The position numbers and the translations under genes were made by a program. Source: an uncultured Pseudomonadales bacterium (GTDB lineage: Bacteria > Patescibacteriota > Microgenomatia > UBA1400 > PJMF01). From it: a stretch of DNA of 64,000 nt. Where the stretch lies: the NCBI GenBank assembly GCA_964412775.1, contig CAYPPX010000001.1, positions 1,122 to 65,121 of the forward strand, written 5' to 3'. The notes beneath the pieces are model-generated. The model was not told where the DNA came from. It saw only the letters and a list, made by a program, of their open reading frames with translations, and made no database searches. Positions 2,030 through 52,787 of this stretch are shown piece after piece. Position 1 is the stretch's first letter. Each line of letters opens with the position of its first letter.

Positions 2030-2500
2030 AAAAAGCGCTAAGCTGAAGTTCGGTAGCCTGCCCAACCGACCGAACTTCAACCTAACGCTTTCACGAATCT
2101 AACCCGTAGTATACAACAAGTCTGAACATTAATATATAGTAATAAATATTAAAAGATATTAATATCCAGTTTACCGGACCCGATGAAAATGCTATGTTCA
2201 GTTCATCTCTCACAAACCACAGTGTTTTCGTGAGAAATACAGAGCAATATTATTCGTGGTCTTCCAGCGGTAATCTTGCGCCTTGATCCACCGTATTTGT
2301 AGTTCTGCCTGCCATGTTCTGGAATCTACAAATTGCGGTGGATTTTTTTATCTCAAGTTCCCATCTTTAGAGAACCGTTGATTTTTAATTCTTCCACTCT
2401 AAATGCTTCAAAACCAGCTTTTAATAAAGTCTTCCATGCTGATTGCCTCCCCTAAGATTAATTAGGCTTCCTGGAGGTAATCAGCCTTTATTTTTCAATT
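2030..2500. other. Noncoding structured region, candidate small RNA(s) of unknown family
   Basis: ~750-bp ORF-free interval. GC-rich inverted repeat gaagttcgg...ccgaacttc (2044-2075) with a T-run on the minus strand. Long imperfect hairpin ccaccgtatttgtag...ctacaaattgcggtgg plus TTTTTTT (2293-2352) on the plus strand. A second terminator-like hairpin lies at 2438-2496. Confidence 0.25.
2438..2496 (+). terminator. Rho-independent terminator-like hairpin (gctgattgcctcc ... ggaggtaatcagc followed by a T-run)
   Basis: 13-bp imperfect stem plus CTTTATTTTT seen directly in the sequence. Confidence 0.4.
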
Positions 2501-2705
2501 GATTTTAAAACAAATTCACTATAACTCATTTTTAGTTATTTTGTCAAATTTTTAGGTCTTATAATAATAAATACTCTATATTTTGACTATCTTATATAAT
2601 TATATTTAAAACAAAACCAGGTTTATTTAAAAAGTTATCAACAAGATTAGTAAAGATGAGGATAACTGGTGAAAAACCAAAAATAAGCTATAATTTAATA
2701 ACCAA

Positions 2706-3049: not shown

Positions 3050-5227
3050 ATGACTTCACATACTATTTTAGAAATTAGAACTGGCCGTGATGCTGAACAT
3101 ACTCCAGAAACTGCCGTCCAGTTTTACTCTACTCTACCTAAACTTTACAACAATATTTTTTACCAACTAATTGGCCAACATGAATACTTTAGTTTGGAGA
3201 TTGTCGTCAGAGATCAAACCATTAAGTTCTTGATGTACGTCCCCAACCGTTTAGTGGAATATGTTCGAGGGGCAATCACTGCTAGCTATCCAGAGTCCTT
3301 AGTAACTGAAAGACTTGATGACCCTATTCTTGACTTTTTTGACCCAGAAGGAAAACTTATTGCACCAACTTTTGTTAAAACTGGTAATTTAGCTTTATCA
3401 AATGCAGAATATTTACCCTTAAAAACCTATTTAGATTTTAAAGAAGTTGATCCACTAGCCTCACTCCTTGCTTTTCTTTCTAAGAGCCAACCCACAGATA
3501 TCATTCATATCCAATATTTGGTTTCACAAGATAGAGACTGGTGGAAAAATAAAGGTTGGCATGAAATTAGTGGTAAATCAGTTGACGATGCTTCGGCTGG
3601 TTACCACCGTCAAAAAGCCATGATTGAGGAGAAACTCAAAAAGGAAGCTTTAAAAGTAGGGATTAAAATTGCAGTTAGAACAGACTCTGCCCAACGCAGT
3701 GACCTAATTATTGAAACTCTTGCAGCTACTTATAATTCTATCTCTAAGAGTGAAGGTAACTTGCTGGTTTTGCGTAGAAATTACCTTTTCAAAACTCATT
3801 TTATGAAGATGATGAAGAAACGAGATTTCTTTATGTCTCCTAAAATGCACTTGGCTCTAGATGAGTTGGCCACCGTTTATCACTTGCCCAATAAAGATTT
3901 GGAGGTTATTCCTAATATTGCTTGGGGTAAAAATCTACTTGGTGAACCACCAGAAAATTTACCAATCATCACTCGTGACACCAACCCAGAAGAAAAAGTT
4001 CATACCAACGTTTTTGCCGAGACTACTTATAAAAATAAAGCAGTGAAATATGGTTTAAAACGAGCCGATCGTCGTCGCCACATGTATGTCATTGGTAAAA
4101 CTGGTACTGGTAAGTCTACTCTCCTGGCTAACATGGCCATTAATGACTTAAAAAATAACGAGGGCATGTGTGTCATCGATCCTCATGGTGATCTAGTAGA
4201 AACTCTCCTTAACTATATTCCTTCTCGCAGAATTAATGATGTAATTTACTTTGACCCCAGTGACCCTGAAAGAACTGTCCAGATTAACTTATTTGAAGGT
4301 AAAAATGTCGTTCACCGAGAATTGATTGCTTCTGGTATTATCTCTATTTTCCAAAAACTTTATGGTTACTCCTGGGGTCCAAGACTTGAATATATTTTGA
4401 GAAATGCTTTGTTAACCCTTTTGACGAGTGATAATGCCAGGTTGTCTGATATCTTGGAGCTTTTGACTAATAAAAAATTTAGAGATAAATATGTCGAAAA
4501 TCTTGAAGACCCAATCTTGAAAAGCTATTGGGTGGAAGAATATAACAAGATGCAAGACCGATTAAGGACTGAGTCAATTGCTTCTATTTTAAATAAAGTG
4601 GGCCAATTTACCTCTTCACCACTAATTCGTAACGTGGTGAATGCTCATAAAAGTTCCTTTAACATCGAAGATATTATGAATGAAGGCAAGATTTTACTGG
4701 TTAATCTTTCTCAGGGAAAACTCGGTGAAGACAATGCCACCTTACTAGGTGCGATGATGATTACTAAAATTCAACTTGCTGCCATGACCAGAGTTCACAT
4801 TGAAGAAGAAAAAAGAAGAGATTTTTATCTTTATGTCGACGAGTTCCAAAACTTTGCCACTGAGGCCTTTATTAAAATTTTGTCTGAAGCTCGTAAATAT
4901 CGACTAAATTTAACTCTGGCTAACCAGTATATTGCTCAAATCCCAGAAGAAGTCCAAAAAGCGATCTTTGGTAACTGTGGTAGTGTGGCTAGTTTTGTCA
5001 TGGGTTCGGAGGATGCTGAAGTCTTCAGTAAAGAGTATGGTGAACATTACACTCCTGACGAGCTGGTTTCACTAGAAAAGCACCAAATTATTAATCGAAT
5101 CTCAATTGATAATGTCTTAAGTAAACCATTCCCAGCTCGAACCTTGGCCTTAGCCAAAAGCAGTAATATGAATAAAGATAAAGTGATTAAAGTGAGCAAA
5201 GAACGTTACGCTAAAAAACGTAGTTAG
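3050..5227 (+). CDS. VirD4/TraG/TraD-like type IV coupling protein-like P-loop ATPase (soluble; lacks N-terminal TM segments)
   Basis: Walker A YVIGKTGTGKST, downstream IDPHGDL, Walker B-like LYVDEFQNF (DEFxN motif of the TraG-D_C/VirD4 family); no hydrophobic N-terminus. Confidence 0.5.
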   Translation: MTSHTILEIRTGRDAEHTPETAVQFYSTLPKLYNNIFYQLIGQHEYFSLEIVVRDQTIKFLMYVPNRLVEYVRGAITASYPESLVTERLDDPILDFFDPEGKLIAPTFVKTGNLALSNAEYLPLKTYLDFKEVDPLASLLAFLSKSQPTDIIHIQYLVSQDRDWWKNKGWHEISGKSVDDASAGYHRQKAMIEEKLKKEALKVGIKIAVRTDSAQRSDLIIETLAATYNSISKSEGNLLVLRRNYLFKTHFMKMMKKRDFFMSPKMHLALDELATVYHLPNKDLEVIPNIAWGKNLLGEPPENLPIITRDTNPEEKVHTNVFAETTYKNKAVKYGLKRADRRRHMYVIGKTGTGKSTLLANMAINDLKNNEGMCVIDPHGDLVETLLNYIPSRRINDVIYFDPSDPERTVQINLFEGKNVVHRELIASGIISIFQKLYGYSWGPRLEYILRNALLTLLTSDNARLSDILELLTNKKFRDKYVENLEDPILKSYWVEEYNKMQDRLRTESIASILNKVGQFTSSPLIRNVVNAHKSSFNIEDIMNEGKILLVNLSQGKLGEDNATLLGAMMITKIQLAAMTRVHIEEEKRRDFYLYVDEFQNFATEAFIKILSEARKYRLNLTLANQYIAQIPEEVQKAIFGNCGSVASFVMGSEDAEVFSKEYGEHYTPDELVSLEKHQIINRISIDNVLSKPFPARTLALAKSSNMNKDKVIKVSKERYAKKRS

Positions 5228-5261
5228 TGGTTGGGACTAATTTAAAATTAACTCACAACTC

Positions 5262-5293
5262 ACTCCCCTCTCCCCCGTGGGTAAGTGTCTCAT
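5262..5293 (+). repeat. GC-rich ~30-nt intergenic element, copy 1 (CCCCTCTCCCCCGTGGGTAAGTGTCTCAT)
   Basis: Near-identical sequence recurs at 13248-13277 (same orientation) and 45732-45766 (inverted); stands out against AT-rich intergenic DNA. Confidence 0.5.
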
Positions 5294-5391
5294 GTTTTTC
5301 TGACAACAAATTTGAAACAAAAATATAACCAAACGATATGTTTGCTTGTCACTCAAAAAAATTTTAATACTGTTAAAACCTAACTCAAAAT

Positions 5392-6799: not shown

Positions 6800-7096
6800 T
6801 TACTCTATGTTGCCAACAAACAAAGTATCACCACTATATTGCCCAGTCACCGTTACTTTTTGACCAACATAAGCAGAAAGGTCGATTGCATAACTATCAA
6901 TCTCTTTGGGAACTTGGCCGGCTTCAGTTAAAAAATATTTACCATCAACAGTGCTAATTGTCCCAGTTTTGGTAGTGTCCCCTACTTTTTCATTAGCGGC
7001 TCGTTGAACTTCTTGTTTGGTCAAGTTTTGTTTACCACAGCCAGCAAATAGAATAGCCGAACCCAATAAAACAACTGAGAGAAATACTTTTTTCAT
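6800..7096 (-). CDS. Small lipoprotein, hypothetical
   Basis: Signal peptide with lipobox LFAGC; 98 aa. Confidence 0.5.
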   Translation of the reverse strand: MKKVFLSVVLLGSAILFAGCGKQNLTKQEVQRAANEKVGDTTKTGTISTVDGKYFLTEAGQVPKEIDSYAIDLSAYVGQKVTVTGQYSGDTLFVGNIE

Positions 7097-11293: not shown

Positions 11294-13222
11294 ATGGAGC
11301 GTTTTCTTCAGCCTATCAAGTTCGTTTTTTCTCAGAACTCTAAAAAAAAGAGTTCTCAAGCTGTATTTATTGAGGAAAAACTAAATCCATTCAACCAAAA
11401 ACCCCCAAAAACTAACTACTTAGCTGGAGTTTCACTTATCACTGTTCTTTCAACTGCTCTCCTATTTATAGTTTACTCATCTAGCAAGTTTTTACCTGAA
11501 ACCTATGTTGAAGAAGTTAGGATCGGTGGGCTAACCAAAGAAGAAGCTATTCAAAAAATAACCAATCATTACCCCACTCCACCTGAACACACCATCACTC
11601 TTGGGTTTGATAGCCAATCATTTTTAGAACAGCAACCAGAAACACTTAGTAATTTTACTAATGAGTCTCTAAGTGTTACTACCAATTCGGCAGAATTAGC
11701 GGCTAGTTATGACTACCAAACAACCGTCAATGACATATTAACTAATCAACAAAAAAACAAATTAAATTGGTTAAAACAGTTAATTTTTGAACCAAATAAA
11801 CAAAAATTATTTGTTTTACCCATCAAATATGACTCAGACAAATTAAAACTCTTTGTACAAAACTTTAAAAATAAATTTGACCAGCCTCTAGATTTACCTA
11901 GGGTTAGTTTGGAGATCACAAATTCACCTCAGAGCTTAGTTTTAAATCCAGGTAGTAATACTTTAGCGATTGAACTTGATAAAACTTTGGAAAAAATAAC
12001 CACAGAACTAAGAGAAACTAGCCATTTAACTAATATTAAAAAACGACCAATCCTATCGTTAGAACCAGAATTAGTTTGGGCTAGCAAAACTTTAACTCCT
12101 GAAGAAAAAGTAACAGCTTTAAAAACTGCACAACAGTTAGTTGGAACTGAACTAACCCTTAAATACGATGTCATTACCAAAAAAATCAATGACCAGCAAT
12201 TAGTCTCATTTTTAACTTTTCCAACTGGTTTTATTGATGAAAAACTTGATGAACTAATTGATTCATGGAAAAAAGAACTTGATCGGCCAGCCAAAAATGC
12301 AGAATTTGAGTTTGATAAACAAAGTTTTATCGTTACCAAGTTTTCTCCAGATAGAGAAGGTCTTGCCCTTGATAAGGATCAACTTAAAACTTTGCTGAAA
12401 GAGACTATTAATAACTTGATGATCAACAACCAAGAAAAAACCAAAGAACTAACTTTACCTTTTGTAACTACCACTCCAGATTTAACTTTGGAAAAAACCA
12501 ATAACTTGGGTATTAACCAAAGAATTGGTTTTGGGGAAAGTTATTATGCTCATTCAATTCCAAGCAGAATTCATAACGTTGCTTTAGCAGCCAAAAGAAT
12601 TAATTATTCAATCATCGCGCCTGGCAAAGAATTCTCCTTTAATAAAGCCATTGGCGATGTTTCAGCTCAAACAGGTTTTCAATCAGCTTATGTGATTAAA
12701 GATGGCCAGACTGTCTTGGGCGATGGTGGTGGTGTGTGTCAGGTTAGTACTACTTTATTTAGAGCCCTGCTTAATGGGGGCTTAGATATTACTCTTAGGT
12801 TACCTCATAGCTATCGGGTCAGTTACTATGAACTTGATAACCAACCAGGATTTGATGCAACCGTTTATGATGGTAATGTAGATCTCAGGTTTATCAATGA
12901 TACGCCCAACTATATTTTAATTTACACTGAAACTGATAGTAATAACCTTTATATGAAAGTTGAACTTTATGGCACTAGTGATGGACGAACAGCCGAGATA
13001 TCTAATTACAAATCTTGGGGTTATAGCCCACCCCTACCTCCTGTTTATGTACCAGACCCATCTCTCCCTACTGGTAAATTAAAACAAATTGACTGGTCAG
13101 CTAGTGGGATTAAAGCAGAGTTTACTTATACAGTTAAAGATAAAAACGGTAAAATTATTAGAGAAAAAACTTACTACTCTAATTATCGACCTTGGGCAGC
13201 AAAGTATCTGCAAGGAATTTAA
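11294..13222 (+). CDS. VanW-domain protein, membrane-anchored
   Basis: N-terminal TM; C-terminal region with GDGGGVCQVSTTLFRALLNGG, typical of the VanW family. Confidence 0.6.
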   Translation: MERFLQPIKFVFSQNSKKKSSQAVFIEEKLNPFNQKPPKTNYLAGVSLITVLSTALLFIVYSSSKFLPETYVEEVRIGGLTKEEAIQKITNHYPTPPEHTITLGFDSQSFLEQQPETLSNFTNESLSVTTNSAELAASYDYQTTVNDILTNQQKNKLNWLKQLIFEPNKQKLFVLPIKYDSDKLKLFVQNFKNKFDQPLDLPRVSLEITNSPQSLVLNPGSNTLAIELDKTLEKITTELRETSHLTNIKKRPILSLEPELVWASKTLTPEEKVTALKTAQQLVGTELTLKYDVITKKINDQQLVSFLTFPTGFIDEKLDELIDSWKKELDRPAKNAEFEFDKQSFIVTKFSPDREGLALDKDQLKTLLKETINNLMINNQEKTKELTLPFVTTTPDLTLEKTNNLGINQRIGFGESYYAHSIPSRIHNVALAAKRINYSIIAPGKEFSFNKAIGDVSAQTGFQSAYVIKDGQTVLGDGGGVCQVSTTLFRALLNGGLDITLRLPHSYRVSYYELDNQPGFDATVYDGNVDLRFINDTPNYILIYTETDSNNLYMKVELYGTSDGRTAEISNYKSWGYSPPLPPVYVPDPSLPTGKLKQIDWSASGIKAEFTYTVKDKNGKIIREKTYYSNYRPWAAKYLQGI

Positions 13223-13247
13223 AAATATTAACTGCAAAAAAACCACA

Positions 13248-13277
13248 CCCCTTCTACCCCGTGGGTAAGTGTCTCAT
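13248..13277 (+). repeat. GC-rich ~30-nt intergenic element, copy 2 (CACCCCTTCTACCCCGTGGGTAAGTGTCTCAT)
   Basis: 21/21 core identity (CCCCGTGGGTAAGTGTCTCAT) with copy 1; lies ~30 nt after the stop of the VanW-like gene. Confidence 0.5.
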
Positions 13278-13379
13278 ATTAATCTGTCTTTTAGCTTAAA
13301 AATACCCAAAAGTGATCAATTTGAACTTTTAAGATTGGTTTGACTAGTATCTGTTTATTTCAGTACACTGTTAGAGCTG

Positions 13380-13759: not shown

Positions 13760-15520
13760 TTAGTTTTTGTGTTCAATGTTGAAAAATGCAAAGCTACTTT
13801 GAGGAATTCGCAAATAACCAGGAGCTCTCAAATTAAAAGTTTCCTTAAACTCACTCCCAGAAATAGAGATTGTGCCTTTATTAGTATTCAAAGTAACAGT
13901 TGCCGTTTGACCATTGCTATTATGGCTAACTGAAACACTAGAAATACTGGTAACAGCTCCACCAGAGTTATTGGCTTTATCTCTTAGTTCTGAAATCGAG
14001 TAAGGACTACCACCTTGGCCACCAATATTACACTCATTAATCGTCGTTGGAGTAATTTTGTTTAGATCAGCACCATTGGGATTTTTTCTAACAATCCAAG
14101 CATTGATGATGTCAGCAAACTCTTCTTGTGACAACCAGGGATGAGCTCTACCACAGCTAGCCCCAGAAGAAGAGTAACCGGAGCGATACCATGATTTGTA
14201 AAACCAAGGACTGCCCGCTTTATTTTCCCAAGCCCTAGTTGACCAATCACCAGAATTTGATTTATCGGTCGTGTCCCAATTACTAGTATTGCTGTAACCA
14301 CCATGCGTTGAAGCATATTGCGTGGAAACTGGATTTCCACTGCCATCAACTAACACCCAGTTTTTGGTTTCATTGACAGCCGTTTGCCAATTACCACCTT
14401 TGGGTGAATCTTTATAAACTTGGCAACTTTCAGTTGTACAAATTGATCTAGCACCATTATCAGTATATTTGATGGCAAAAGTTCTGGCCGCAATAGCTTG
14501 AGCCTTGAGAGCATTAAGTGGCCATGAGCCTGGCATTTCATAGATTCCTTGTAAATATTGATCTTCAAAAGACCGGCTTCCATAACCCTCCACATTAATT
14601 GAACTCATTTCAGCGTAATCTTTTTTAATCGTCGTTCCTGGATAATAAGCTGCCAGGATTTCTTCGACTGACTGACCTGCCTCTGCTCTAGCTTTAGCTC
14701 CATACTGACTCATACCATTGCGGTGGGTGTAAGCTCCAAAACTAAACACAGCAAAAGAATTACTGGGAGCTTGAGCTTTATAAGCAATTGAAGCGTTAAA
14801 GTCATCTGCCAAAGGCACCTCACCCACTGAAGTCGTATAAGTTCCAGAACGAGCATTAATAATTGCTTCCTGCTGAGCTGATAACGAAGCAATTTGACCA
14901 GCTAGATTGGTTTGATAGTTTTTGGCTTTACCAATCTCGACTTTAAAAAAACTAGCCTGGCTATCCAGTTGTTTCTCTAAACTTGCTAGTTTTAATTGAT
15001 CTTGTTCTAGTTTTTGTTTATCTGACTCAAGGGCTGTGATTTCATCAGTCAAAGATCTAATTAACCGATTGTCTTGTGCTTGAACTGAAGAGCTATAAGC
15101 TAAATTTTTAGTTAGTTTACTGGCATTACTACTATTAAAGAAAAGTAATAGTGGTGAAAAAGTTCTAGATCTTTTGTACTGTTGGGCAATTCTGTTAGAA
15201 AAAATAATGTACTGAACAGCGATATCATCTTCTCTATTCTCAATAGTTTTTTCTAACTCCTTAGTTTGGTTCTGGGCATTGATAATTCCTTGTCGAGCAT
15301 TAGTAATTTTTTTCTCCAAAGAACTAAGCTCTTGCTCAAGTGGTTTGGTAGCATCTTCTGACAGTTTTTTGAGTTGTTCTAGTTCATCAATTTGTCGTTG
15401 TAAGGTTTCGACAGGATCTTCTGCAAAAACCGGTTGGGAAAACAACTTTGAAAAACTCAAACTAGCACCAATCAACAGCAACAAAAACACTAAAGATAAT
15501 GATCTTTTTTGTCTAAACAC
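13760..15520 (-). CDS. SpoIID/LytB-domain secreted protein with an N-terminal coiled-coil
   Basis: Signal peptide, extended coiled-coil (repeated E/Q/L heptads), then LKAQAIAARTFAIKYT (SpoIID signature) and Cys/Trp-rich C-terminus. Confidence 0.55.
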   Translation of the reverse strand: MFRQKRSLSLVFLLLLIGASLSFSKLFSQPVFAEDPVETLQRQIDELEQLKKLSEDATKPLEQELSSLEKKITNARQGIINAQNQTKELEKTIENREDDIAVQYIIFSNRIAQQYKRSRTFSPLLLFFNSSNASKLTKNLAYSSSVQAQDNRLIRSLTDEITALESDKQKLEQDQLKLASLEKQLDSQASFFKVEIGKAKNYQTNLAGQIASLSAQQEAIINARSGTYTTSVGEVPLADDFNASIAYKAQAPSNSFAVFSFGAYTHRNGMSQYGAKARAEAGQSVEEILAAYYPGTTIKKDYAEMSSINVEGYGSRSFEDQYLQGIYEMPGSWPLNALKAQAIAARTFAIKYTDNGARSICTTESCQVYKDSPKGGNWQTAVNETKNWVLVDGSGNPVSTQYASTHGGYSNTSNWDTTDKSNSGDWSTRAWENKAGSPWFYKSWYRSGYSSSGASCGRAHPWLSQEEFADIINAWIVRKNPNGADLNKITPTTINECNIGGQGGSPYSISELRDKANNSGGAVTSISSVSVSHNSNGQTATVTLNTNKGTISISGSEFKETFNLRAPGYLRIPQSSFAFFNIEHKN

Positions 15521-17324: not shown

Positions 17325-19994
17325 GTGTTCAATCACCAACCACTGAACAAATTTTCAAGGTATAATAGATGTGTGAAATTAAGTTATAAACTACTGTTAG
17401 TGTTTTCTTTGTTTTTTTTGTTAATGAGTCGAGTTTTTGAGGTTAAAGCTGCTTCTAGTGATGATTACGTCAACTATACTCGTCGTGATCCAGAAATGTA
17501 TAACTATCTACCACTCGTGATCGATGATGGTTATTCATTGGGTAATACCGGTGAACTTCAAGATATTATTACCTACCAAATGGCCTACAACCAAGGTTAC
17601 GAAGTCCAGTGTGCCAAACCAAAGTGGTGGCTTTGGGGACAAGTGCATGGTGATATTAAAGAATATTTTGAGGAATATGAAAAACCAGTTAGACTAACTT
17701 CAACTTCAGTTTATGAGGGTCAGTTTGCTGAAGGAAAAATTCCTCTCTTTCAAGGAGATGAAGACTTCAAAGATACTACTAAAATCTCTTCTTATGAGGG
17801 TTACTTTGGAGCAAAAAACCTAACCAAACAACCAGCTGAGTTAAATTCGGCCGGTGTAGCTACCACCCTTTTAACCAGAGAAGAACAATGTGTAGTTAAG
17901 TATAACAATTTGTACGAAGTCTATAACAAACTTTTCTGTGATAAATTTAAGGAAGGTTCTCCTTGTAAACTTAACCAAATTGACATTCCAGGCAGAGATT
18001 ATGGTGGCTGGATTCTTTTCGAAGCACTAAGAGATATTTTTGCCATTAAAAGTAAAACAGATCCAGACAAAAATTTCAGTTGTTATGAATTAATGCATGA
18101 GTGGTCTCCAGACATCGAAGAAGAGTTCGGCATTAGCCAATCAAAGTTTGAAAATGACATTAAGCCATTTGCTGAAGATATCAGTCTAGCCCCTCTCAAT
18201 ATGGAAGCTTTATATCGCTTGGCGTTTTTGGTTGTCTCAATTAAACAGAATGTGATGGAAGGCAACGAAGAAGTTGACCCAGCTCTTTTCCCTAGTAATG
18301 AAGATATCTTTGACTTTTTGGAAATCTCAACACCAGAACCAGTCTGGGGTGGAACTTTCGAAAGAATGCCCATTAAAAAAGAAGCTCCCATTGTGATTGG
18401 TTTCAAAGTCCCAATGACTGCTACCAACATGATCTTTTCTTTGCCTGGTTTAACTGATTCAGCCAGACTAACTTCATATCTCTTTAGTGAACCAGAAAGT
18501 ATTGCCAAACATATTGATGAAATGAAAGACCAAAGAAAAGAATACTTGGGGAATATTCTAGCTGTAAAAAAAGGCTTACCTGGCACCGATCCAGTCATCA
18601 ACTGTGGTGCTCTACCTCAATGTGTGGGTGATGATCCTAATAAAATTTTGCTTAGATCTTTAATTGACCAAATTAATGGTAGTGGTCTAGATTGTGGTGG
18701 CTTCGAAGGTTCTTATGAATTGGTATCTGAGTTGGGTTCTAGTGCTAATACTCCAGATAATACTAGAGAGCTAAGAGACCCCTACTTTTCCAAAGTCTTT
18801 ACTTCTGACGCATCCTATACTTTTGACTGGAACATTATTGTCAAAGATGAAGTGGTAAATGGCGACTTAGATGGCGATCCAATTGTAGCCAGAGCACATT
18901 TAGTTACACCTTATGGTAGTGATATGGAATACATCAACAAGGTTTTACGTCAAATGTTTACTGAAGATGAATTCAAAAAAATTGTAGAAAAAAACTGTGT
19001 TGAAGACTTTGATGGTAAGTGTGGAATTATTCCTGAAAACTTAACTTTTGTTAACACTACCGCAGAACTAAAAACCAAGCCAGATGTTTTTTCCTTTATT
19101 TACCATCAGCCACCAGGCTGTGTTGAGAAATGTCCAGAGGATGATAAATACTGTATTGAGTGCGAAAGAAAGAAAATGGCTGGAGTTGTTGTAGAGAACC
19201 CAATAGAACCAATGAGAATTCTAGGTGGCGAGCTAGGGTTTATGATTAGAAAAATTCAAGAAAATTTAAGAGATTATGGCTCAAGAGCTTGGGAATATAT
19301 TCATAACTGTAAACGTACTGAAGATTTATTCTTGGGACGATGTGAAGGTTATGATAGCGGGACTGATCCTACTGATGGTGAAGAATTAGCCTGTGAAGAA
19401 ATCAAAACTAGAACCACTAAATTACCAACTATGAATGAACTGATGAAAATGACTTGTAGTGTAGCTGGTAATGATCCGAACAATGCTCAGATGTTATGGG
19501 GCTTTTTACAAATTGAAGCCAGTCCAATGCTCAGAAAAATTAGAGAAGGAGCAAAAGAAATGAGTTGTGGTGAAATCGTCACTAATGCTTGTGGCGCTTC
19601 AGGCATTGTGGGGGTTTTAATCCCTCAATGTATCGATAAGGAAGGTTGTCCTCAAGCTGCTTATATTGCTGATGATAAAGATGACCCATGGATTCAAGAA
19701 GCGAGAAACAACCCTGATATTGCTTGCGATATCAAAACATCACTGGAATATATTCTAAGGAAAAGACTTTCAGAAAGAGGTTGGTTAGTAGAACAATACA
19801 AAGCTAAAAATGGAACAACCCCATCCACTCAACAACTTTATTATATGATGGCTGGACGTAATTATGGTGTTCCCACTGAATATTTGACAACACCTGCTTG
19901 TGCTGGCTATGAAGAAGTTCAAGGCTGTGGTGGAGCCAACTACTGTGTTTGTACTATGGATACATTCAAGTTGGATTGTGGAAATATTAAATAA
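17325..19994 (+). CDS. Large secreted Cys-rich protein (889 aa), hypothetical; candidate adhesin or effector of the adjacent pilus/T4SS-like system
   Basis: N-terminal signal/TM; >35 Cys spread along the length; no enzymatic motif recognised. Confidence 0.4.
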   Translation: MFNHQPLNKFSRYNRCVKLSYKLLLVFSLFFLLMSRVFEVKAASSDDYVNYTRRDPEMYNYLPLVIDDGYSLGNTGELQDIITYQMAYNQGYEVQCAKPKWWLWGQVHGDIKEYFEEYEKPVRLTSTSVYEGQFAEGKIPLFQGDEDFKDTTKISSYEGYFGAKNLTKQPAELNSAGVATTLLTREEQCVVKYNNLYEVYNKLFCDKFKEGSPCKLNQIDIPGRDYGGWILFEALRDIFAIKSKTDPDKNFSCYELMHEWSPDIEEEFGISQSKFENDIKPFAEDISLAPLNMEALYRLAFLVVSIKQNVMEGNEEVDPALFPSNEDIFDFLEISTPEPVWGGTFERMPIKKEAPIVIGFKVPMTATNMIFSLPGLTDSARLTSYLFSEPESIAKHIDEMKDQRKEYLGNILAVKKGLPGTDPVINCGALPQCVGDDPNKILLRSLIDQINGSGLDCGGFEGSYELVSELGSSANTPDNTRELRDPYFSKVFTSDASYTFDWNIIVKDEVVNGDLDGDPIVARAHLVTPYGSDMEYINKVLRQMFTEDEFKKIVEKNCVEDFDGKCGIIPENLTFVNTTAELKTKPDVFSFIYHQPPGCVEKCPEDDKYCIECERKKMAGVVVENPIEPMRILGGELGFMIRKIQENLRDYGSRAWEYIHNCKRTEDLFLGRCEGYDSGTDPTDGEELACEEIKTRTTKLPTMNELMKMTCSVAGNDPNNAQMLWGFLQIEASPMLRKIREGAKEMSCGEIVTNACGASGIVGVLIPQCIDKEGCPQAAYIADDKDDPWIQEARNNPDIACDIKTSLEYILRKRLSERGWLVEQYKAKNGTTPSTQQLYYMMAGRNYGVPTEYLTTPACAGYEEVQGCGGANYCVCTMDTFKLDCGNIK

Positions 19995-37081: not shown

Positions 37082-37098
37082 TTTCTCTAAAATTCCTC

Positions 37099-37129
37099 TT
37101 GACACATTGTGGAAAACTAGGTGTATAAC
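37099..37129 (+). promoter_or_regulatory. Candidate dnaA promoter (TTGACA ... TATAAC) with an overlapping DnaA-box-like TGTGGAAAA
   Basis: TTGACA at 37099-37104, TATAAC at 37124-37129; TTGTGGAAAA in the spacer suggests autoregulation. Confidence 0.35.
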
Positions 37130-37195
37130 TAAACAATTAAATCTGACCTGTCCTCTAAGATTTTAACTGTCAATAAAACTGTCCAAAAAGGAAAA

Positions 37196-38683
37196 ATGTT
37201 TACTCAAGCACTTGATTCAAGTGAGGTGGTAAAGGTCTGGCAAGCTAGTCAAGAAAGCCTTAAAACCCAGCTCACTCCAGCTGTTTTTAATACTTGGATT
37301 GTTTCTAATCCGCTAACCAAGGTTGAGGTTGATCAACAAAACATGGCTCTAGCAACTATTACTTGTCCGACCGCTTTCCATGCAACAAACTTGAAAAAGA
37401 ATTTATACACTCAACTCAAGGAAACTTTGGAAAAAGAACTAAATCGGCCGGTTGAGATTGAGTTCGTAATTGGTAATCCAATTGATCTAGCCAAGCAAGA
37501 GCCAGCTAAAGAAACTAAAAAAACTTCTCCTCAAAAAAATTTACTCGGATATAACAATGGCAATATCAACTCACCAACAGTTGATGAATTATTTTCAGCA
37601 CATACATTGCAAGCAAGTTTTCAAGACCGAGCTAAAACAGCGGCCAGAAGAGTTGGTCTTAGAGAAGATTACACTTTTAAAACCTTTGCTGTTTCAACTA
37701 CCAATGAGATGGCCCACGCTGCGGCCACCGCCGTTTCTAACAACCCTGGGGTGGCTTATAACCCACTATTTTTATATGGTGGCGTGGGCGTAGGTAAAAC
37801 TCATTTAATGCAAGCTATTGGTAATAACATTCTTAAACAAAATCCTGAGACAAACATTATCTACTGTACTGGTGAAGAATTTACTAATGAAATTGTTAAT
37901 GCTATTCAAAAGAAAAAAGCTTTTGACTTTAAACAAAAGTACCGCAATACTCAAGTTTTACTAATCGATGATGTCCAGTTTATTGCTGGTAAAAATGCTG
38001 TTCAGGAAGAGTTTTTTCATACTTTTAATGCTTTAACCAAACAAGCTTCCCAAATTATCTTAACCTCAGATAGGCCACCTCATGAGATCAATTTACTTGA
38101 ATCAAGACTAAGATCACGGTTTGAAGCTGGTTTAATGATTGATATTCAGCAACCTTCTTTTGAGCTTAGAACAGCTATTCTATTAATAAAATCACAAGCA
38201 AATAATCTTGATTTACCAATGGAATTAGCTCAATTAATCGCTTCAAAAGTAGATGGAGCTAGAAGAATTGAAGGTATTGTTAAATTACTTCGTTCTGAAG
38301 TAGAGCTAAAACAAAAAACTATTAATGAAGAGTTAATTCAAAGTTTGCTTAAGACAGAAGCCCCAACTAATATCTCGATTATTAGAGCCAAACCTCAAGA
38401 TGTCATCAAAACTGTCGCCAATCACTATCGGATTAAACAAAGCGCTCTTAAAGGTAAAAGAAGAACCAAGGAGATTGTTAATGCTAGACATGCGGCTATG
38501 TTCTTATTAAGAAAAGAGCTTAATATGCCACTAGAAGAAATTGGTAAGTGGTTCTCTGGTAGAGACCACACTAGTGTGTTGCATGCGATTAATAAAATAG
38601 AAAAGGAAATTTCCGAAGAAGGCTTGATGAAACAAGATATTTCAGCTATAAGAATGTCATTAACTGTAGTCGCGAAAGGATAG
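37196..38683 (+). CDS. dnaA: Chromosomal replication initiator DnaA
   Basis: AAA+ Walker A LFLYGGVGVGKTHL, sensor motifs, C-terminal DNA-binding domain (HTSVLHA). Confidence 0.95.
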   Translation: MFTQALDSSEVVKVWQASQESLKTQLTPAVFNTWIVSNPLTKVEVDQQNMALATITCPTAFHATNLKKNLYTQLKETLEKELNRPVEIEFVIGNPIDLAKQEPAKETKKTSPQKNLLGYNNGNINSPTVDELFSAHTLQASFQDRAKTAARRVGLREDYTFKTFAVSTTNEMAHAAATAVSNNPGVAYNPLFLYGGVGVGKTHLMQAIGNNILKQNPETNIIYCTGEEFTNEIVNAIQKKKAFDFKQKYRNTQVLLIDDVQFIAGKNAVQEEFFHTFNALTKQASQIILTSDRPPHEINLLESRLRSRFEAGLMIDIQQPSFELRTAILLIKSQANNLDLPMELAQLIASKVDGARRIEGIVKLLRSEVELKQKTINEELIQSLLKTEAPTNISIIRAKPQDVIKTVANHYRIKQSALKGKRRTKEIVNARHAAMFLLRKELNMPLEEIGKWFSGRDHTSVLHAINKIEKEISEEGLMKQDISAIRMSLTVVAKG

Positions 38684-38952
38684 TTATCAACAATTGTGGA
38701 AAACTTTGGGGAAAAATCAGTGGAAAGTTGTTGGAAAACTTTTAATAACTTTTTAAGTTTGTGAATAAGCAGTCGATTTTTACAAAGTTTTCCATCACAA
38801 TACACAAAGTTTTACAGATGACTAAAACGAAACAATCAACAGTGTTTTTAAGTAATAAACCAGACCTAAAAGTAAAGTTTATTCACTTATCCACACACTC
38901 TATTATTACTACAACAAATATATTTATATAAATAGTTAGATAAGTAAGATTT
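38684..38952. promoter_or_regulatory. Putative oriC: DnaA boxes plus an AT-rich unwinding element between dnaA and dnaN
   Basis: Perfect TTATCCACA at 38887-38895; TTATCAACA at 38685-38693; TGTGGAAAA at 38696-38704; further TGGAAA-type half sites; AT-rich AAATATATTTATATAAATAG tract at ~38917-38936. Confidence 0.55.
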
Positions 38953-40053
38953 ATGAAAATTACAGTTTTACAAGAAAATTTAAAAGTTGCTTTAACTAAT
39001 TTACAAAAAGCAATTCCAGCTAAACCTCAATTACCAATTCTGTCATCAATTTATTTAAAGGTTGAAAATAATCAGCTAACTTTGGCGGCAACAGATTTGT
39101 TTATTGGTATCAAAAACGTAATTCCAGCCAAAGTTGAAGTAGCTGGAAGTTGTGTTGTACCTGGTGATATCTTTAAAAACTTAGTTTTTTCTTTTTCTGC
39201 AGGAGAGATAGACTTGGAGTTAAAAGATAAATCAATGATTGTGAAATACCAAAATAGTAAAAGCACTCTCCCCTATCAATTAGCCGAAGAATATCCTCAA
39301 TTTCCAGAAGTAACAGGTGATGAATTTTTTTTGGAAAAATCTTTATTAGAAAGAATCGATAAATATGTCACTTTTGCTACTACCCAGGATCAAACTAGAC
39401 CAGTTTTGACTTCAATTCTTTTTTCTTTTCAAGCGGATAAACTTGAGATTGCTGCCACAGATGGTTACAGATTAGTTAGTTTAGTTGATAACAAAATTAC
39501 TGGTTTAGTTAAGGAACTGTTAATCCCCGTAAAAGCTTTAAATGAAGTTTTTAGAATGATGACCCAAACAGAGTCTAGTAACGTCGTTTTTAAGGTCTCT
39601 GAAGAGCTTAAACAAGTCCTATTTATTGTTGACGGCATTGAGATTTATGTCAGATTAATTGAAGGTGACTATCCACCATATAAAAAAATTATTCCTGATG
39701 AATTTAAATATCAAGTAAAAATTGATGTATCAGAGTTGACTACTCAAGTAAAAAGAGCGTTTCTATTTTCAAAAGATAGTTCTAATATTGTCAGATTTAT
39801 TTTAGCTGACAAAAAACTAGTAATTAAAGCGATTTCACCATCTGCTGGAGAATATCTTGGAGAAATCGAGACCAGTTTTAGTGATGAAAGTCTAGAAATT
39901 GCATTTAATGCTAGTTATATTTTGGATTTTTTAAACACGCAAAAAGAAGGTGAAATTTTATTTAGTTTGAACGAAAGTTTGAAACCAGTTGCATTTAGTT
40001 ATCCTGCAGAAAAAGATTTAATTTACATTGTGATGCCTTTCAGGACTAACTAA
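38953..40053 (+). CDS. dnaN: DNA polymerase III beta sliding clamp
   Basis: N-terminal MKITVLQENL...LTLAATDLF pattern and three-domain length typical of DnaN; immediately follows dnaA. Confidence 0.9.
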   Translation: MKITVLQENLKVALTNLQKAIPAKPQLPILSSIYLKVENNQLTLAATDLFIGIKNVIPAKVEVAGSCVVPGDIFKNLVFSFSAGEIDLELKDKSMIVKYQNSKSTLPYQLAEEYPQFPEVTGDEFFLEKSLLERIDKYVTFATTQDQTRPVLTSILFSFQADKLEIAATDGYRLVSLVDNKITGLVKELLIPVKALNEVFRMMTQTESSNVVFKVSEELKQVLFIVDGIEIYVRLIEGDYPPYKKIIPDEFKYQVKIDVSELTTQVKRAFLFSKDSSNIVRFILADKKLVIKAISPSAGEYLGEIETSFSDESLEIAFNASYILDFLNTQKEGEILFSLNESLKPVAFSYPAEKDLIYIVMPFRTN

Positions 40054-45466: not shown

Positions 45467-45580
45467 AACTTCTTTTGATTTAATGGCTAAAATGCAAGCA
45501 TTTGTTTGATTTTTTGGTTTTAAAAATGTTTTTTAAATTAGATCTCTTGGGGATAATTGCCAAATAATATTTTTTTTAAT

Positions 45581-45640
45581 TTTTCTTATTTTTCTTATTT
45601 TTCTTATTTTTCTTATTTTTCTTATTTTTCTTATTTTCTT
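45581..45640. repeat. 9-bp direct tandem repeat (TTTTCTTAT), about 6 copies
   Basis: Perfect 9-nt periodicity of CTTAT (C at 45585, 45594, 45603, 45612, 45621, 45630), read directly from the sequence. Confidence 0.7.
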
Positions 45641-45731
45641 CAATGATTTAATAGGCGAACAAGCAAAAGTTTAATTGTTTATTGGCTGGCAAAGTTTTCA
45701 AGGTTGATTATAAATTGGGTGTCAGTAGGAT

Positions 45732-45766
45732 ATGAGACGCTTGCCCACGGGGCAGAGGGGACGGGC
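45732..45766 (-). repeat. GC-rich ~30-nt intergenic element, copy 3 (inverted: GCCCGTCCCCTCTGCCCCGTGGGCAAGCGTCTCAT on the minus strand)
   Basis: Reverse complement aligns with copies 1 and 2 with 3 substitutions in the 21-nt core. Confidence 0.5.
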
Positions 45767-46046
45767 TAATTTTATATTTAATATTTTTAAAGGTTGGCAT
45801 TATATACCCAAATTCTGACATTAATCTGACGCTAACCTGACAAAAATTTTCACGTGTTTTATTTATTAAACTTAATAAAAGAACCTATTTATCAATCTAA
45901 AAACCAATAAATTAATTAGATATATTTTGATATTAATTGATTGGTTTTTGTTAAAATAATTTAGTGACATCCATTTTTATTCTTAAAAGGTGTGATACAA
46001 TAGTACGCCTGGTTTAAAACAAACGAAAAATATTTTGAAAGGTTAA

Positions 46047-50174: not shown

Positions 50175-50585
50175 TTACCAGTTAGTATCTGCTGTTGGGA
50201 TTGAAAATTGCAGAATGCTTTTAACACCAGTAAATTCGGCAATTAAATTTAAGATAATAAATGAACTGAGGGCTACCACTAAGCCAACTACAGCAAAGGT
50301 AATAGAGCTTTTGGATTTTTCAACGGCTTGAGAATTACCACCGGAAAGCATAATTCTAATTCCAGAAACAACTAGCATTATAAAACCAGCAATACCAATG
50401 ATGGTTAAAAAGTTACTTAAAAGTCTGGCTAATAAACACTGAAAACCTTGAATAGTTGCAACATCAGTATGAGTGTCATCAACACAGACACCAGTCCATT
50501 GAGCACTGGCTGGTAAAGCAGCCAGTAAGAAGATTAAGTTGGTAGTGATGAAACCAATAATTCTAGTGGAGTATTTTTTTAACAT
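50175..50585 (-). CDS. Pilin-like small membrane protein, divergent member of the array (VirB2/TrbC-like architecture)
   Basis: Signal peptide, helix 1, loop SGGNSQAVEKSKSS, helix 2; same layout as the downstream paralogs. Confidence 0.45.
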   Translation of the reverse strand: MLKKYSTRIIGFITTNLIFLLAALPASAQWTGVCVDDTHTDVATIQGFQCLLARLLSNFLTIIGIAGFIMLVVSGIRIMLSGGNSQAVEKSKSSITFAVVGLVVALSSFIILNLIAEFTGVKSILQFSIPTADTNW

Positions 50586-50629
50586 AATTTAAGTCAAAAA
50601 TTCGTTGTTAATGGCATTATACATCAGAA

Positions 50630-50662
50630 ACTAAAAACCCCACACCTTAAAGCGTGGGGTTT
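50630..50662 (-). terminator. Rho-independent terminator after the pilin array (hairpin CCCCAC/GTGGGG plus T-run on the minus strand)
   Basis: Minus-strand reading: AAACCCCACGCTTTAAGGTGTGGGGTTTTTAG. Confidence 0.5.
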
Positions 50663-50684
50663 CTTGATTACTTTTTTGAAGTCT

Positions 50685-51089
50685 TTATTTACCAGTAATA
50701 CTTTTGGTGTTAAAGACATCATTGAGGTCTGAGAAGCCAAGGAAGTTCAAGGCAAGGGTCAAGACTGCATATGAAGCAGCCACCACGATCAAACCAATGA
50801 TAGCTGAAGTGATTTTGTTTCTAGCAGCTTCAGTTTTACCTTTGTCACCACCACTAGTAATCCATTCGATACCACCCCAAATGAGATAGAGGAAAACTAA
50901 CAAAGCAGCAATTACCATCACAAAACTTAAGACACCATTAATCAAACCACCAAAATCAGTGGCAAAACCTTTACCTGGGTCTACGTTAGTATCAGTAATC
51001 TTGGTGGCAGCAGCTACTGGTAAAACACTAGTAGCCAAACCACTAAGGGCAACTCCGGTGGAGAGAGCAAATTTTTGAATTTTGTTCAT
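50685..51089 (-). CDS. Pilin-like protein paralog (VirB2/TrbC-like), conserved EWITSGGDKGKTEAARNKIT loop
   Basis: Signal peptide plus two hydrophobic helices around the GIEWITSGGDKGKTEAARNKITSAIIGLIVVAAS core; nearly identical to the core of the next gene. Confidence 0.55.
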   Translation of the reverse strand: MNKIQKFALSTGVALSGLATSVLPVAAATKITDTNVDPGKGFATDFGGLINGVLSFVMVIAALLVFLYLIWGGIEWITSGGDKGKTEAARNKITSAIIGLIVVAASYAVLTLALNFLGFSDLNDVFNTKSITGK

Positions 51090-51174
51090 ACTTTTCCTTT
51101 TAAATTTTTATTCCTTAATAATCTACTTGTTAATTGTATCAAGAATTTACCTGATTCGTCAAAAAAAGATTTTT

Positions 51175-51516
51175 CTAGCAACTTCCATCAAAGCTTAGTA
51201 CACAAATTCCCAAGAAACTTTGCAATAACATAAAGATAGCAGTAGTGGCAGCTAAAACAATTAAACCAATAATTGCTTGAGTGATTTTATTTCTAGCAGC
51301 TTCAGTTTTACCTTTGTCACCACCACTAGTAATCCATTCAATTGCTCCCCAAAGCAAAAAAATTAAGACCATTACGGCTGCGATAACCATGATGCCTCCC
51401 ATTAAGCCACCAAGTAGAGTGCCAAAGTTTTTTTGAGGATCAGCACTAACAGCTCCTGGCAAGTTGCCTTGGGCAGCTCCTGATAAGTCTAGTGTAGCAG
51501 CAATGGTTTTATTCAT
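51175..51516 (-). CDS. Pilin-like protein paralog (VirB2/TrbC-like)
   Basis: Core AIEWITSGGDKGKTEAARNKITQAIIGLIVLAAT. Confidence 0.55.
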   Translation of the reverse strand: MNKTIAATLDLSGAAQGNLPGAVSADPQKNFGTLLGGLMGGIMVIAAVMVLIFLLWGAIEWITSGGDKGKTEAARNKITQAIIGLIVLAATTAIFMLLQSFLGICVLSFDGSC

Positions 51517-51519
51517 AAT

Positions 51520-51933
51520 TTAATTTGGATCCGGAACGTTAATTTGTAAGACACTAAAGGTATCACCAAAGAAAATTTCACCAATAAAGCCAATAATTGC
51601 ATATGAACCAACCAAAACAACTAGACCAATTACGGCTTGAGTAATTCTGTTTCTAGCATTTTCGACCTTGCCTTTATCGCCACCACTACCAATCCATTCA
51701 ATTGCTCCCCAAACAAAGAAGATCAAAACTGTAATAGCACCAATACTAATTAAGGCATTCCAAAAGAAAATAAAGTATTCAGCAAAAGTACTGCCAGAAG
51801 CAGCTTCTTTTGAACCACTACCATATTTACCACTAACAACGGGGTTAGTTATTTCAGCTTTGACTGGGCTAGCCAAAAAAAGTCCTAATAGAAAAGTGTT
51901 GATGGCTGTTGATATTTTGGTTAGTTTTTTCAT
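51520..51933 (-). CDS. Pilin-like protein paralog (start refined to the internal Met MKKLTKIS)
   Basis: Core AIEWIGSGGDKGKVENARNRITQAVIGLVVLVGS; the longer ORF-track start would overlap the upstream paralog. Confidence 0.5.
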   Translation of the reverse strand: MKKLTKISTAINTFLLGLFLASPVKAEITNPVVSGKYGSGSKEAASGSTFAEYFIFFWNALISIGAITVLIFFVWGAIEWIGSGGDKGKVENARNRITQAVIGLVVLVGSYAIIGFIGEIFFGDTFSVLQINVPDPN

Positions 51934-51937
51934 ATTT

Positions 51938-52309
51938 TTAAATAGAGTCAACAATTGTTTGAATTTGTTCTGCTGGATTAAGTAAGTCAATACCAATGAA
52001 GCTACCCAGTAAACCAAGAATAGCGTAAGAAGCCACAATAATAACCAAACCAATGGCTCCGTTCATCATTCTAGTTCTGGCTTTTTCGGTTTTACCTTTA
52101 TCACCACCACTAGTAATCCATTCAAAGGCACCAAGCACAAAATAGATAACAAAAAAAACAGTTCCAATAGTGGTCATGAAACCAATGATATTTGAAATGA
52201 AAAGTTCTAGGTTTGACAAAGCCCCACCAGCAGTATTAGAGCCTTTACTGTAAGCTTCGGTAGGTGGTTTGAATCCACCAATGTCGATTGTTTTTTGTGC
52301 TAATTGCAT
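51938..52309 (-). CDS. Pilin-like protein paralog
   Basis: Core AFEWITSGGDKGKTEKARTRMMNGAIGLVIIVAS. Confidence 0.55.
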   Translation of the reverse strand: MQLAQKTIDIGGFKPPTEAYSKGSNTAGGALSNLELFISNIIGFMTTIGTVFFVIYFVLGAFEWITSGGDKGKTEKARTRMMNGAIGLVIIVASYAILGLLGSFIGIDLLNPAEQIQTIVDSI

Positions 52310-52312
52310 GTT

Positions 52313-52744: not shown

Positions 52745-52787
52745 TTTCTCTGGATATTCTATTACTTTCTTTATTTTTTAGCTAGTT

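Follow-up and report, generated by a model that had tools for sequence, protein, structure and literature searches.

A conserved intergenic element at gene 3' ends in a Pacebacteria chromosome segment and its relatives

Short, GC-rich sequences that recur outside genes are best known as the repetitive extragenic palindromes (REPs) and bacterial interspersed mosaic elements (BIMEs) of Enterobacteria and Pseudomonas. They are concentrated just past stop codons, whether in an operon or between two convergent genes, and as a rule they share the transcript of the gene before them; effects on mRNA 3' stability, Rho-dependent attenuation and the translation of the upstream gene have been reported. 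Here, an element of comparable setting was analysed in a 64,000-nt stretch of DNA (the window; contig CAYPPX010000001.1, positions 1,122 to 65,121) that represents a chromosome segment of the ultra-small, uncultivated Pacebacteria (Patescibacteria, Candidate Phyla Radiation [CPR]). It is likewise short, GC-rich against its surroundings, multi-copy, extragenic and placed after stop codons. True REPs are strong palindromes, a defining feature that the REP-like identity considered in a preliminary description of the window lacks. Unlike REPs and BIMEs, the element has no strong palindrome, no GT[AG]G foot and no inverted pairs; its information lies mainly in unpaired positions, and it occurs about once per 20 kb (three copies in 64 kb). 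On the sequence evidence it is a kind of interspersed gene-end intergenic repeat undescribed in the libraries searched, and the literature searched held no description of such an element in Patescibacteria and nothing relevant on CPR intergenic repeats or REPs.

Rho-dependent terminators, which together with REPs and BIMEs come closest to the element among known systems, resemble it in other respects. Their Rho utilization (rut) sites are C-rich, G-poor and unstructured tracts directly after a stop codon, with upstream-gene polarity. The C-rich strand of the element (here termed sense, its G-rich complement ATGAGAC...GGGG being termed forward) holds a C-tract of only ~25 nt, or ~60 nt with a second C-rich part. 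Unlike the near-invariant ~21-nt box of the element, rut sites are not conserved in sequence, and they are usually longer (60-80 nt). The nearest architectural parallel is lambda tR1, in which rutA and rutB flank the boxB hairpin. Intrinsic terminators share the position, 0-33 nt past stop codons at transcription-unit boundaries, but the element has neither their stable stem nor their adjoining U-tract: its sense-strand stem is followed by UAAGUGUCUCA, and a terminator scan flagged only one copy (c1), which has a copy-specific G-U stem and TTTTT.

DNA uptake sequences (DUS) of Neisseria and the uptake signal sequences (USS) of Pasteurellaceae also have a GC-rich core followed by AT-rich sequence, are often found at gene ends, and belong to hosts that likewise carry type IV secretion or competence-type machinery. 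They are, however, 10-30 nt long, occur about once per kb and are common in genes, whereas the element has at least 45 conserved nt and is restricted to intergenic DNA at its much lower density. Presence/absence polymorphism at orthologous sites and decayed remnants are shared with miniature inverted-repeat transposable elements (MITEs) and with the enterobacterial repetitive intergenic consensus (ERIC) and Correia repeats. Unlike MITEs, the element has no terminal inverted repeats, its ends being GTCAG... and a G-rich tail, no target-site duplication was seen between filled and empty sites, and its orthologues are stably inherited with site-specific signatures. Signals of the FtsK orienting polar sequence (KOPS) or Chi type are far shorter and far more frequent than the element, and they also occur in genes.

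Copies in the window and in related genomes

The preliminary description, made from the window sequence alone, had reported a ~30-nt element present three times. Its 21-nt core, CCCCGTGGGTAAGTGTCTCAT, was confirmed as an exact match at 5273-5293 and 13257-13277 on the plus strand. None of 100 dinucleotide-preserving shuffles of the window contained a match to CCCCGTGGGTAAGTGTCTCAT, which excludes a chance origin of the recurrence. On the minus strand, the 21-mer matched 45732-45752 with 2 mismatches; the earlier account of an inverted copy at 45732-45766 with three substitutions was roughly right for that longer stretch. Based on alignment and on the extents given by nhmmer and a covariance model, the unit measures ~48-60 nt, and the original ~30 nt was thus an underestimate. 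The consensus of the G-rich strand is tGTCAG-N6-8-TGAGACACTTACCCACGGGG-N4-5-GGGG-(G/purine-rich tail), and TGARAYRCTYRCCCAYGGGG-N3-6-GGGG serves as a compact search pattern.

Copy c1 spans 5253-5312 with its G-rich strand on the minus strand (covariance model, 63.9 bits over 5259-5306). Its GTCAG lies at 5304-5300, the box TGAGACACTTACCCACGGGG at 5292-5273 and the second G-run at 5268-5265, with the purine tail extending to 5259. The C-rich complement, on the plus strand, is 31 nt past the stop codon of a gene for a TrwB/VirD4-like type IV coupling ATPase (3050-5227, +), and the convergent radA gene has its stop (5392) 85 nt from c1. Copy c2 (13234-13294, G-rich strand minus; 62.4 bits over 13243-13290) has GACAG instead of GTCAG. 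Its C-rich complement begins 20 nt past the stop codon (13220-13222) of a VanW-family gene (11294-13222, +), and ~50 nt further on lies a promoter-like TTGACT-N18-TACACT (13340-13369) of the next plus-strand gene. The 21-mers themselves start 45 nt (c1) and 34 nt (c2) past the stop codons ending at 5227 and 13222. Copy c3 (45713-45776) has its G-rich strand on the plus strand and is therefore inverted relative to c1, c2 and the flanking plus-strand genes.

An additional AT-rich module, TTAAT(ATT)TTTAAA, accompanies all three copies. At c1 it is the palindromic TTAATTTTAAATTA (5238-5251, minus strand), between the element and the upstream stop codon. Its counterparts read TTAATATTTTTAAA, at 13218-13231 (minus strand), overlapping the VanW stop codon, and at 45778-45791 (plus strand); the offset from the core is equal in c2 and c3. 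The GC fraction of the 48-nt core (0.48-0.65) exceeded that of the 28 intergenic spacers of at least 30 nt in the window (0.21-0.40), bearing out the GC contrast first noted. The purine fraction of this core was 0.56-0.69, a strong purine/pyrimidine asymmetry, and the first 21 nt of the C-rich strand contained 10-13 C against 1-5 G.

The pattern ATGAGACNCTTNCCCACGGGG was scanned over 185,579 species genomes and returned six loci. Two were chance matches inside coding DNA of genomes of 61-63% GC, and four, in contigs of 35-39% GC, were true copies (L001, L004, L005 and L006). L005 belongs to a metagenome-assembled genome (MAG) of Patescibacteria, and the other three share one MAG. L004 is syntenic with the window at 75-87% amino-acid identity, and a second, diverged copy was found in it with nhmmer. 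The shared MAG (CAYSQA010000005/11/07) is titled 'uncultured Pseudomonadales' at a contig GC of 35-39%; the title is probably a taxonomic mislabel or reflects a binning error. A further 19 syntenic loci were fetched through homologues of the VanW and DUF4012 proteins. In the window and these relatives, nhmmer and covariance model R1 identified 17 distinct copies, all intergenic, at seven independent sites. No weaker or diverged members were detected in 320-440 kb (nhmmer at E<=10 and covariance model), and on these searches the family is all-or-none, being either well conserved or absent. The preliminary description had taken the motif for more than a local coincidence, and this stood: the only matches in coding regions were the two chance ones, and related genomes carry the element at orthologous intergenic sites.

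Site a, between the convergent TrwB-like and radA genes, is occupied by c1 and by copies in L007 and L009, where the element fills the entire 64-65-nt spacer between the convergent stop codons. Site b, after the VanW gene, holds c2 and copies in L004, L007, L009, L019 and L020. Site c follows the second type IV secretion system (T4SS) pilin gene in L004, L007 and L009; in the window it is reduced to a remnant, GTGTTCAATCACCAACCACTGAAC (17325-17348, +), after the pilin stop codon ending at 17309. This remnant resembles the GTGTCTCATCTCAACCTGACC end of the three intact copies, with the C-tract and the hairpin half deleted. The c3 site, in the spacer between the DUF4012 and L25 genes, is filled only in the window and the 96%-identical L022, and the copy is absent from L021 and L023. 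The L001 copy lies after a gene for a surface protein with a sortase signal and before a tRNA gene, the L005 copy after an M16-type peptidase-like gene (identified by eye from its translation) and 385 nt before ndk, and the L006 copy after smpB; these three lie outside the syntenic region around the replication origin (oriC). The tRNA gene of L001 (925-1005, minus strand; anticodon apparently UAU by eye) is ~70 nt past the CTGAC end, with TATAAT between.

All these sites lack the element in L011-L018, L023 and L025, where the genes abut or are separated by short spacers. In a neighbour-joining tree of VanW, the carriers fell into two clades, (W, L019, L020) and (L007, L009), parted from the non-carriers by very short internal branches, and therefore either the element was anciently present and has been lost repeatedly or the tree is unresolved. 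Losses do happen, as the remnant at 17325-17348 attests. At L011 30-57 (minus strand), and equally in L012-L014, a perfect 8-bp hairpin, CTCTTCCC-ATTC-GGGGAAGAG, is followed by GGGGAGG; downstream, at a distance of 25 nt, come the Shine-Dalgarno sequence and ATG of an open reading frame (ORF) of 56 aa. The hairpin has GGGGAAGAGGGGAG in common with the site-b copies, but its homology to the element is doubtful (nhmmer E=3.9).

Across the copies, 17 alignment columns were invariant and a further 7 nearly so, most of them outside the small hairpin described below. Copy c2 shares an unchanged 21-nt box with the site-b copies of L007 and L009, although the VanW proteins concerned are only 62% identical. 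More generally, flanking proteins at orthologous sites were 62-69% identical and the core was near-invariant, with spacers, tail and flanks that could not be aligned. This identity of the core across 62%-identical genomes excludes neutrality. Orthologues also have site signatures in common (GAAGAGGGGAG for site b, TGAAGGGGC for site a); this pattern suggests that the copies are passed on vertically under selection, with no homogenisation within genomes.

Copy c3 has a different history. It shares with the flank of c2 the 14 nt of TTAATATTTTTAAA at the equal offset, and 13218-13279 and 45730-45791 are 79% identical. Since the flank of c2, including the overlap with the VanW stop, was carried along, c3 would have arisen by segmental duplication. 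The c3 sequences of the window and L022 differ by ~5 substitutions in 50 nt, among them the change of GGGG to GGAG. Copy c3 was thus probably duplicated from c2 in recent times and is in decay.

Coding potential, folding and comparison with known motifs

The preliminary description had noted that each copy could encode a peptide, MR(H/R)LPTG..., and had preferred an RNA or DNA element. That preference was upheld. A micro-ORF draws some support from the ATG at the head of 12 of the 17 copies and from MRHLPTGERG(V/G), which can be read in four, but the start is GTG in 3/17 and CTG in 2/17. Codon 8 is a stop in seven copies, created by a T in c2, L005, L009c, L019b and L020b and present as TGA in L007a and, one base on, in L009a. 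No Shine-Dalgarno sequence precedes the start, and insertions and deletions in the N4-5 spacer shift the reading frame. With a start codon that is not conserved and with premature stops, the peptide reading is effectively refuted from the aligned copies. The companion idea, a functionless sequence shared by chance or recent duplication, could appeal to c3, which seems a neutral duplicate, but is opposed by the shuffles and the core identity given above. Either form of explanation is extremely improbable.

Folding of the copies with their flanks and covariation across relatives, both suggested in the preliminary description, were carried out with divided outcomes. RNA folds of 106-nt windows around the three window copies gave z-scores of -0.9 to +1.4, and nothing stable was found in either orientation. 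RNAalifold returned -3.3 kcal/mol for an alignment of 16 sequences, and single-stranded DNA (ssDNA) folds of the 30-nt core gave -2 to -7 kcal/mol. The structure that could be discerned is a small hairpin, CUUACCC-ACG-GGGNAR, with a stem of 6-7 bp. Two of its pairs showed compensatory changes, A:U to G:C in c3 and L022 (pair 4:14) and U:A to C:G in L007a, and the compensation values were reached by 0-9 of 500 shuffles; the hairpin on the G-rich strand thus has some support from covariation. One pair is an A.G mismatch in 9/17 copies, and conservation was mainly of sequence: most invariant columns (GTCAG, TGAGAC, CCCA) are unpaired, suggesting that it is chiefly the sequence that would be recognised.

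Two further pairings were discarded. An alternative register paired 99% of cells yet was uninformative, the purine-rich 3' side pairing promiscuously with U and C. An outer helix, CAC/GUG, showed one apparent compensation (CGC/GCG in L007a) and was missing in ~45% of copies; it was dropped because it would be expected by chance in the G/U-rich tail.

Comparison with known motifs was negative. Rfam 15 gave no match in the window at the gathering score and only noise at E<=10 around c1 and c3, and ARAGORN found no tRNA or transfer-messenger RNA (tmRNA) there. BLAST searches of phages and plasmids returned only chance matches (E>=4). Degenerate-pattern scans of metagenome and viral contig collections gave no match, although the metagenome set evidently lacks even L020, a JGI contig with a matching copy, and is uninformative on rarity. 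A sigma-70 promoter was rejected in either orientation, TTGTCA-N17-TACCCA and CTGACA-N17/18-x being inconsistent across copies, and sigma-54 and extracytoplasmic function (ECF) patterns did not fit. The conserved positions fit neither the integron attC core (GTTRRRY) nor the hammerhead core (CUGANGA). Likenesses to the 5' end of U1 small nuclear RNA and the 5' splice site (ACUUACC/GGUAAGU) and to boxC involve variable positions or only 7-9 nt and were regarded as coincidental, as were those to 16S rRNA near position 110 and to the anti-Shine-Dalgarno tail.

A candidate gene 3'-end signal and its alternatives

At six of the seven sites, the C-rich strand is co-directional with the gene whose stop codon precedes the C-tract, with a gap of 0-33 nt. 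In addition to the 31 and 20 nt at c1 and c2, the gaps were 13-14 nt at the pilin site, 24 nt in L001, 5 nt in L005 and 33 nt in L006 (smpB); in orthologous copies they were 0-13 nt. The genes that end at these sites are unrelated to one another, and the polarity towards the stop codon persists even in spacers of 160-440 nt. Beyond the far end, CTGAC, lies a convergent stop codon, a tRNA gene or a promoter-like sequence of the gene that follows, and the six polar sites are predicted transcription-unit boundaries. In the first 20,000 nt of the window, hairpin-plus-U terminators were no commoner than chance (14 found against 13.8 expected). Good intrinsic terminators do occur at ~2040-2100 and at 50625-50655, both on the minus strand, the latter a canonical one, AAACCCCACGCTTTAAGGTGTGGGGTTTTT. 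Since canonical terminators are found elsewhere in the window, the element would form a separate class of gene-end signal.

Based on these features, the element is tentatively proposed to be a lineage-specific, cis-acting gene 3'-end or termination signal, defined by its primary sequence instead of a stable fold and composed of a rut-like C-tract followed by a conserved box. This possibility best accommodates the position and polarity of the element, its unstructured and G-poor C-tract and a distribution that is all-or-none. The association with 3' untranslated regions or terminators, one of several roles that the preliminary description listed with no choice among them, is retained to this extent, the element following a stop codon at 6/7 sites; the lack of a stable hairpin and of a U-tract sets it apart from classical terminators. 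In the proposed sense transcript, the stop codon would be followed by an A-rich spacer of 0-33 nt and then by a nearly G-free C-tract of ~22-25 nt, CNCNCCCC-UYUN-CCCC. Next would come the invariant box GUGGGUAAGUGUCUCA, able to close a tiny CCC/GGG hairpin, and most copies would continue with another C-rich stretch that finishes with CCUGAC. The element would mark the end of the transcription unit, and the C-tract, freshly untranslated where ribosomes leave, would be the place where a factor for termination or 3'-end definition loads or recognises the transcript, much as Rho loads at rut. Alternatively, the factor might be an RNA-binding protein specific to the clade, with the invariant box as its target. 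The insignificant folds (z of -0.9 to +1.4) together with the bias of C over G are what a rut-like site requires.

Several observations count against a 3'-end signal of this kind. The hairpin is, from its pairing pattern, better formed on the G-rich strand, opposite to sense: the DNA fold was slightly stabler on that strand in 5/5 comparisons, and on the sense strand the U:G wobbles of 7/17 copies become C.A and the A.G mismatches of 9/17 become C.U. A rut model leaves the invariance of GUGGGUAAGUGUCUCA and of GTCAG unexplained. Rho was not encoded among the 40 of the ~52 main ORFs of the window covered by Pfam, and no literature on Rho in CPR bacteria was found. The polarity of c3 is opposite to that at the other sites. 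L011-L018 lack the element at the same boundaries with no obvious substitute, which indicates that it is dispensable. Lastly, seven independent sites are a small sample.

The occurrence of several strictly intergenic copies, polymorphic in presence at orthologous sites, would also suit a REP-like interspersed ssDNA element, in which the hairpin of the G-rich strand would be recognised by a clade-specific HUH/RAYT-like nuclease or recombinase. Spread or upkeep of the copies would be the work of this enzyme, and they would persist at gene 3' ends, where insertions are tolerated. The internally deleted remnant at site c and the recent extra copy c3 agree with such a history, as do the two compensatory changes and the wobble pairs, which fit the G-rich strand only. 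IS200/IS605-type HUH elements are oriented as leading-strand sequence, that is, as lagging-strand template, and in the window the G-rich strand takes this orientation on both sides of oriC (3/3 copies; c1 and c2 left of dnaA, c3 right of it). This rule fails, from the local GC skew, for L005; the same contradiction tells against a KOPS-like, replication-oriented reading that the three window copies fit. The stem of 6-7 bp, with a mismatch in half of the copies and the small folding energies given above, is weak beside the palindromes of true REPs, no GT[AG]G-type foot, BIME-like pairing, terminal inverted repeats or clear target duplication was seen, and the same 40 ORFs included no transposase and no HUH nuclease/RAYT. 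Moreover, c3 carries 14 nt of the c2 flank, as expected of segmental duplication and not of precise transposition, and the site-specific signatures kept by orthologues argue against recent spread. Such a REP-like element is considered rather unlikely, though less so than the readings that follow. Unlikely, too, is a double-stranded DNA (dsDNA) site for a clade-specific nucleoid-organising, roadblock or regulatory protein that would contact GTCAG, TGAGACACTTACCCACGGGG and GGGG. It would account for the conservation of sequence and not of pairing in the 17 invariant and 7 nearly invariant columns, and for an all-or-none family, as expected with dependence on a trans-acting factor; a promoter-like sequence lies 30-50 nt past the CTGAC end at four sites, and the terminal motif AACCTGAC(A) is also the unit of an 11-bp-phased CTGACA array upstream of the L25 gene. 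An asymmetric footprint of at least 45 nt with no dyad or direct-repeat symmetry would nevertheless be atypical, and an activator site upstream of a gene would not be expected to keep a strict polarity to the stop codon before it. No promoter that could be regulated is present at site a of L007 and L009, between convergent stop codons, and the likeness to a DnaA box is 7/9 only, the genome's own boxes being canonical.

A small RNA or cis-antisense RNA transcribed from the G-rich strand, starting near GTCAG and running into the convergent gene at its 3' end, is very unlikely. The hairpin and wobble pairs do favour this strand, its purine tract GAAAGGGGUG resembles an extended Shine-Dalgarno sequence, and many copies have U-runs within 10-30 nt (U7 in c2; U5-U7 in L001, L009a and L009c). 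These runs, however, are the complement of A-rich or Lys-codon sequence at the ends of neighbouring genes and do not directly follow the stem. A plausible CTGGCA-N17-TATAAA was seen by eye 6 nt before GTCAG in c3, but neither a -10 nor a -35 element recurred at a fixed distance across the copies (by eye; upstream regions not aligned), and the small-RNA option of the preliminary description thus lacks a conserved promoter. An absence of Rfam matches even at E<=10, fold z-scores that are not significant and the consensus of -3.3 kcal/mol tell in the same direction.

The array upstream of the L25 gene consists of CTGACA, CTGACG and CTGACA at an exact 11-bp period, followed by TTTTCACGTGTTTT (45815-45856). 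Relatives have four units (L022, ~6820-6880; L023, 12962-13041; L021, 13021-13100, inverted as TGTCAG x4). The terminal motif of the element is the same as the final unit of the window's array, AACCTGACAAA. No other array of this type was found between genes of the window; the one further match of the scan (14658-14737) is intragenic and non-periodic. In its sequence the array looks like a direct-repeat operator of the Pho-box/OmpR family, that is, a response-regulator site. A DnaA box was rejected as the identity of the element: TTACCCACG matches TTATNCACA at 7/9 positions, real boxes lie beside dnaA, and the L001, L005 and L006 copies are outside the oriC region.

Genomic setting and significance

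The assignment of the window to Pacebacteria agrees with the VanW-family protein beside c2, which is 97% identical to a Candidatus Pacebacteria protein; the window has a GC content of 31-41%. It is predicted to contain oriC, because dnaA (37196-38683), dnaN (38953-40053), canonical DnaA boxes and the minimum of the cumulative GC skew (36-38 kb) occur there. The origin region comprises 37082-37195 and 38684-38952, where DnaA boxes adjoin dnaA and dnaN: TGTGGAAAA at ~37108 and 38696, TTATCCACA at 38887-38895 and TTATTCACA at 38760-38768 on the minus strand.

Type IV secretion-like genes are plentiful in the window and include the TrwB-like ATPase, a VirB4-like ATPase, PrgI and many T4SS pilins. 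On the minus strand, 50175-53126 holds a tandem series of seven small paralogues, of which one or more is T4SS-pilin-like by Pfam; most of their syntenic counterparts in L021 and L023 are T4SS-pilin-like too. A 158-nt repeat family with 63-77% identity runs through these genes. At 17359-17375 and at the equivalent positions in L004, L007, L009, L011 and L015, a conserved GGTATAAT is only 6-7 nt away from a downstream GTG, which is probably where an 889-aa ORF listed from 17325 really starts; this spacing suggests that the mRNA is leaderless and that the ORF was called too long. In the DUF4012-L25 spacer, a tandem (TTTTTCTTA)n of ~7 units (45571-45637) is absent from the 96%-identical L022 and would therefore be a recent expansion. 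At 2040-2547 (minus strand), ~430 nt are enclosed by a promoter close to consensus, TTGACA-N18-TATAGT (2547-2518), and by a strong hairpin-U7 terminator (~2100-2040); they contain no ORF above ~20 codons and gave no Rfam or tmRNA match. This unit may be an undescribed non-coding RNA or a tiny-ORF unit.

To our knowledge, almost nothing is known about how transcripts end and how intergenic DNA is organised in the reduced, uncultivated Patescibacteria. If the element were only a REP-like passenger, it would be the first such family for the clade in the libraries and literature searched, and of modest significance. A bolder and rather improbable possibility is that this CPR clade has a sequence-defined terminator, a C-tract plus a ~21-nt box that acts through a lineage-specific factor and not through hairpin thermodynamics. 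If this were true, bacteria would here possess an equivalent of sequence-specified 3'-end formation, and lineages would acquire or lose the signal along with its factor. The element may serve as a sequence handle for finding its putative trans-acting partner by phylogenetic profiling, and equally for annotating the ends of transcription units and testing sequence-specified termination in public metatranscriptomes.

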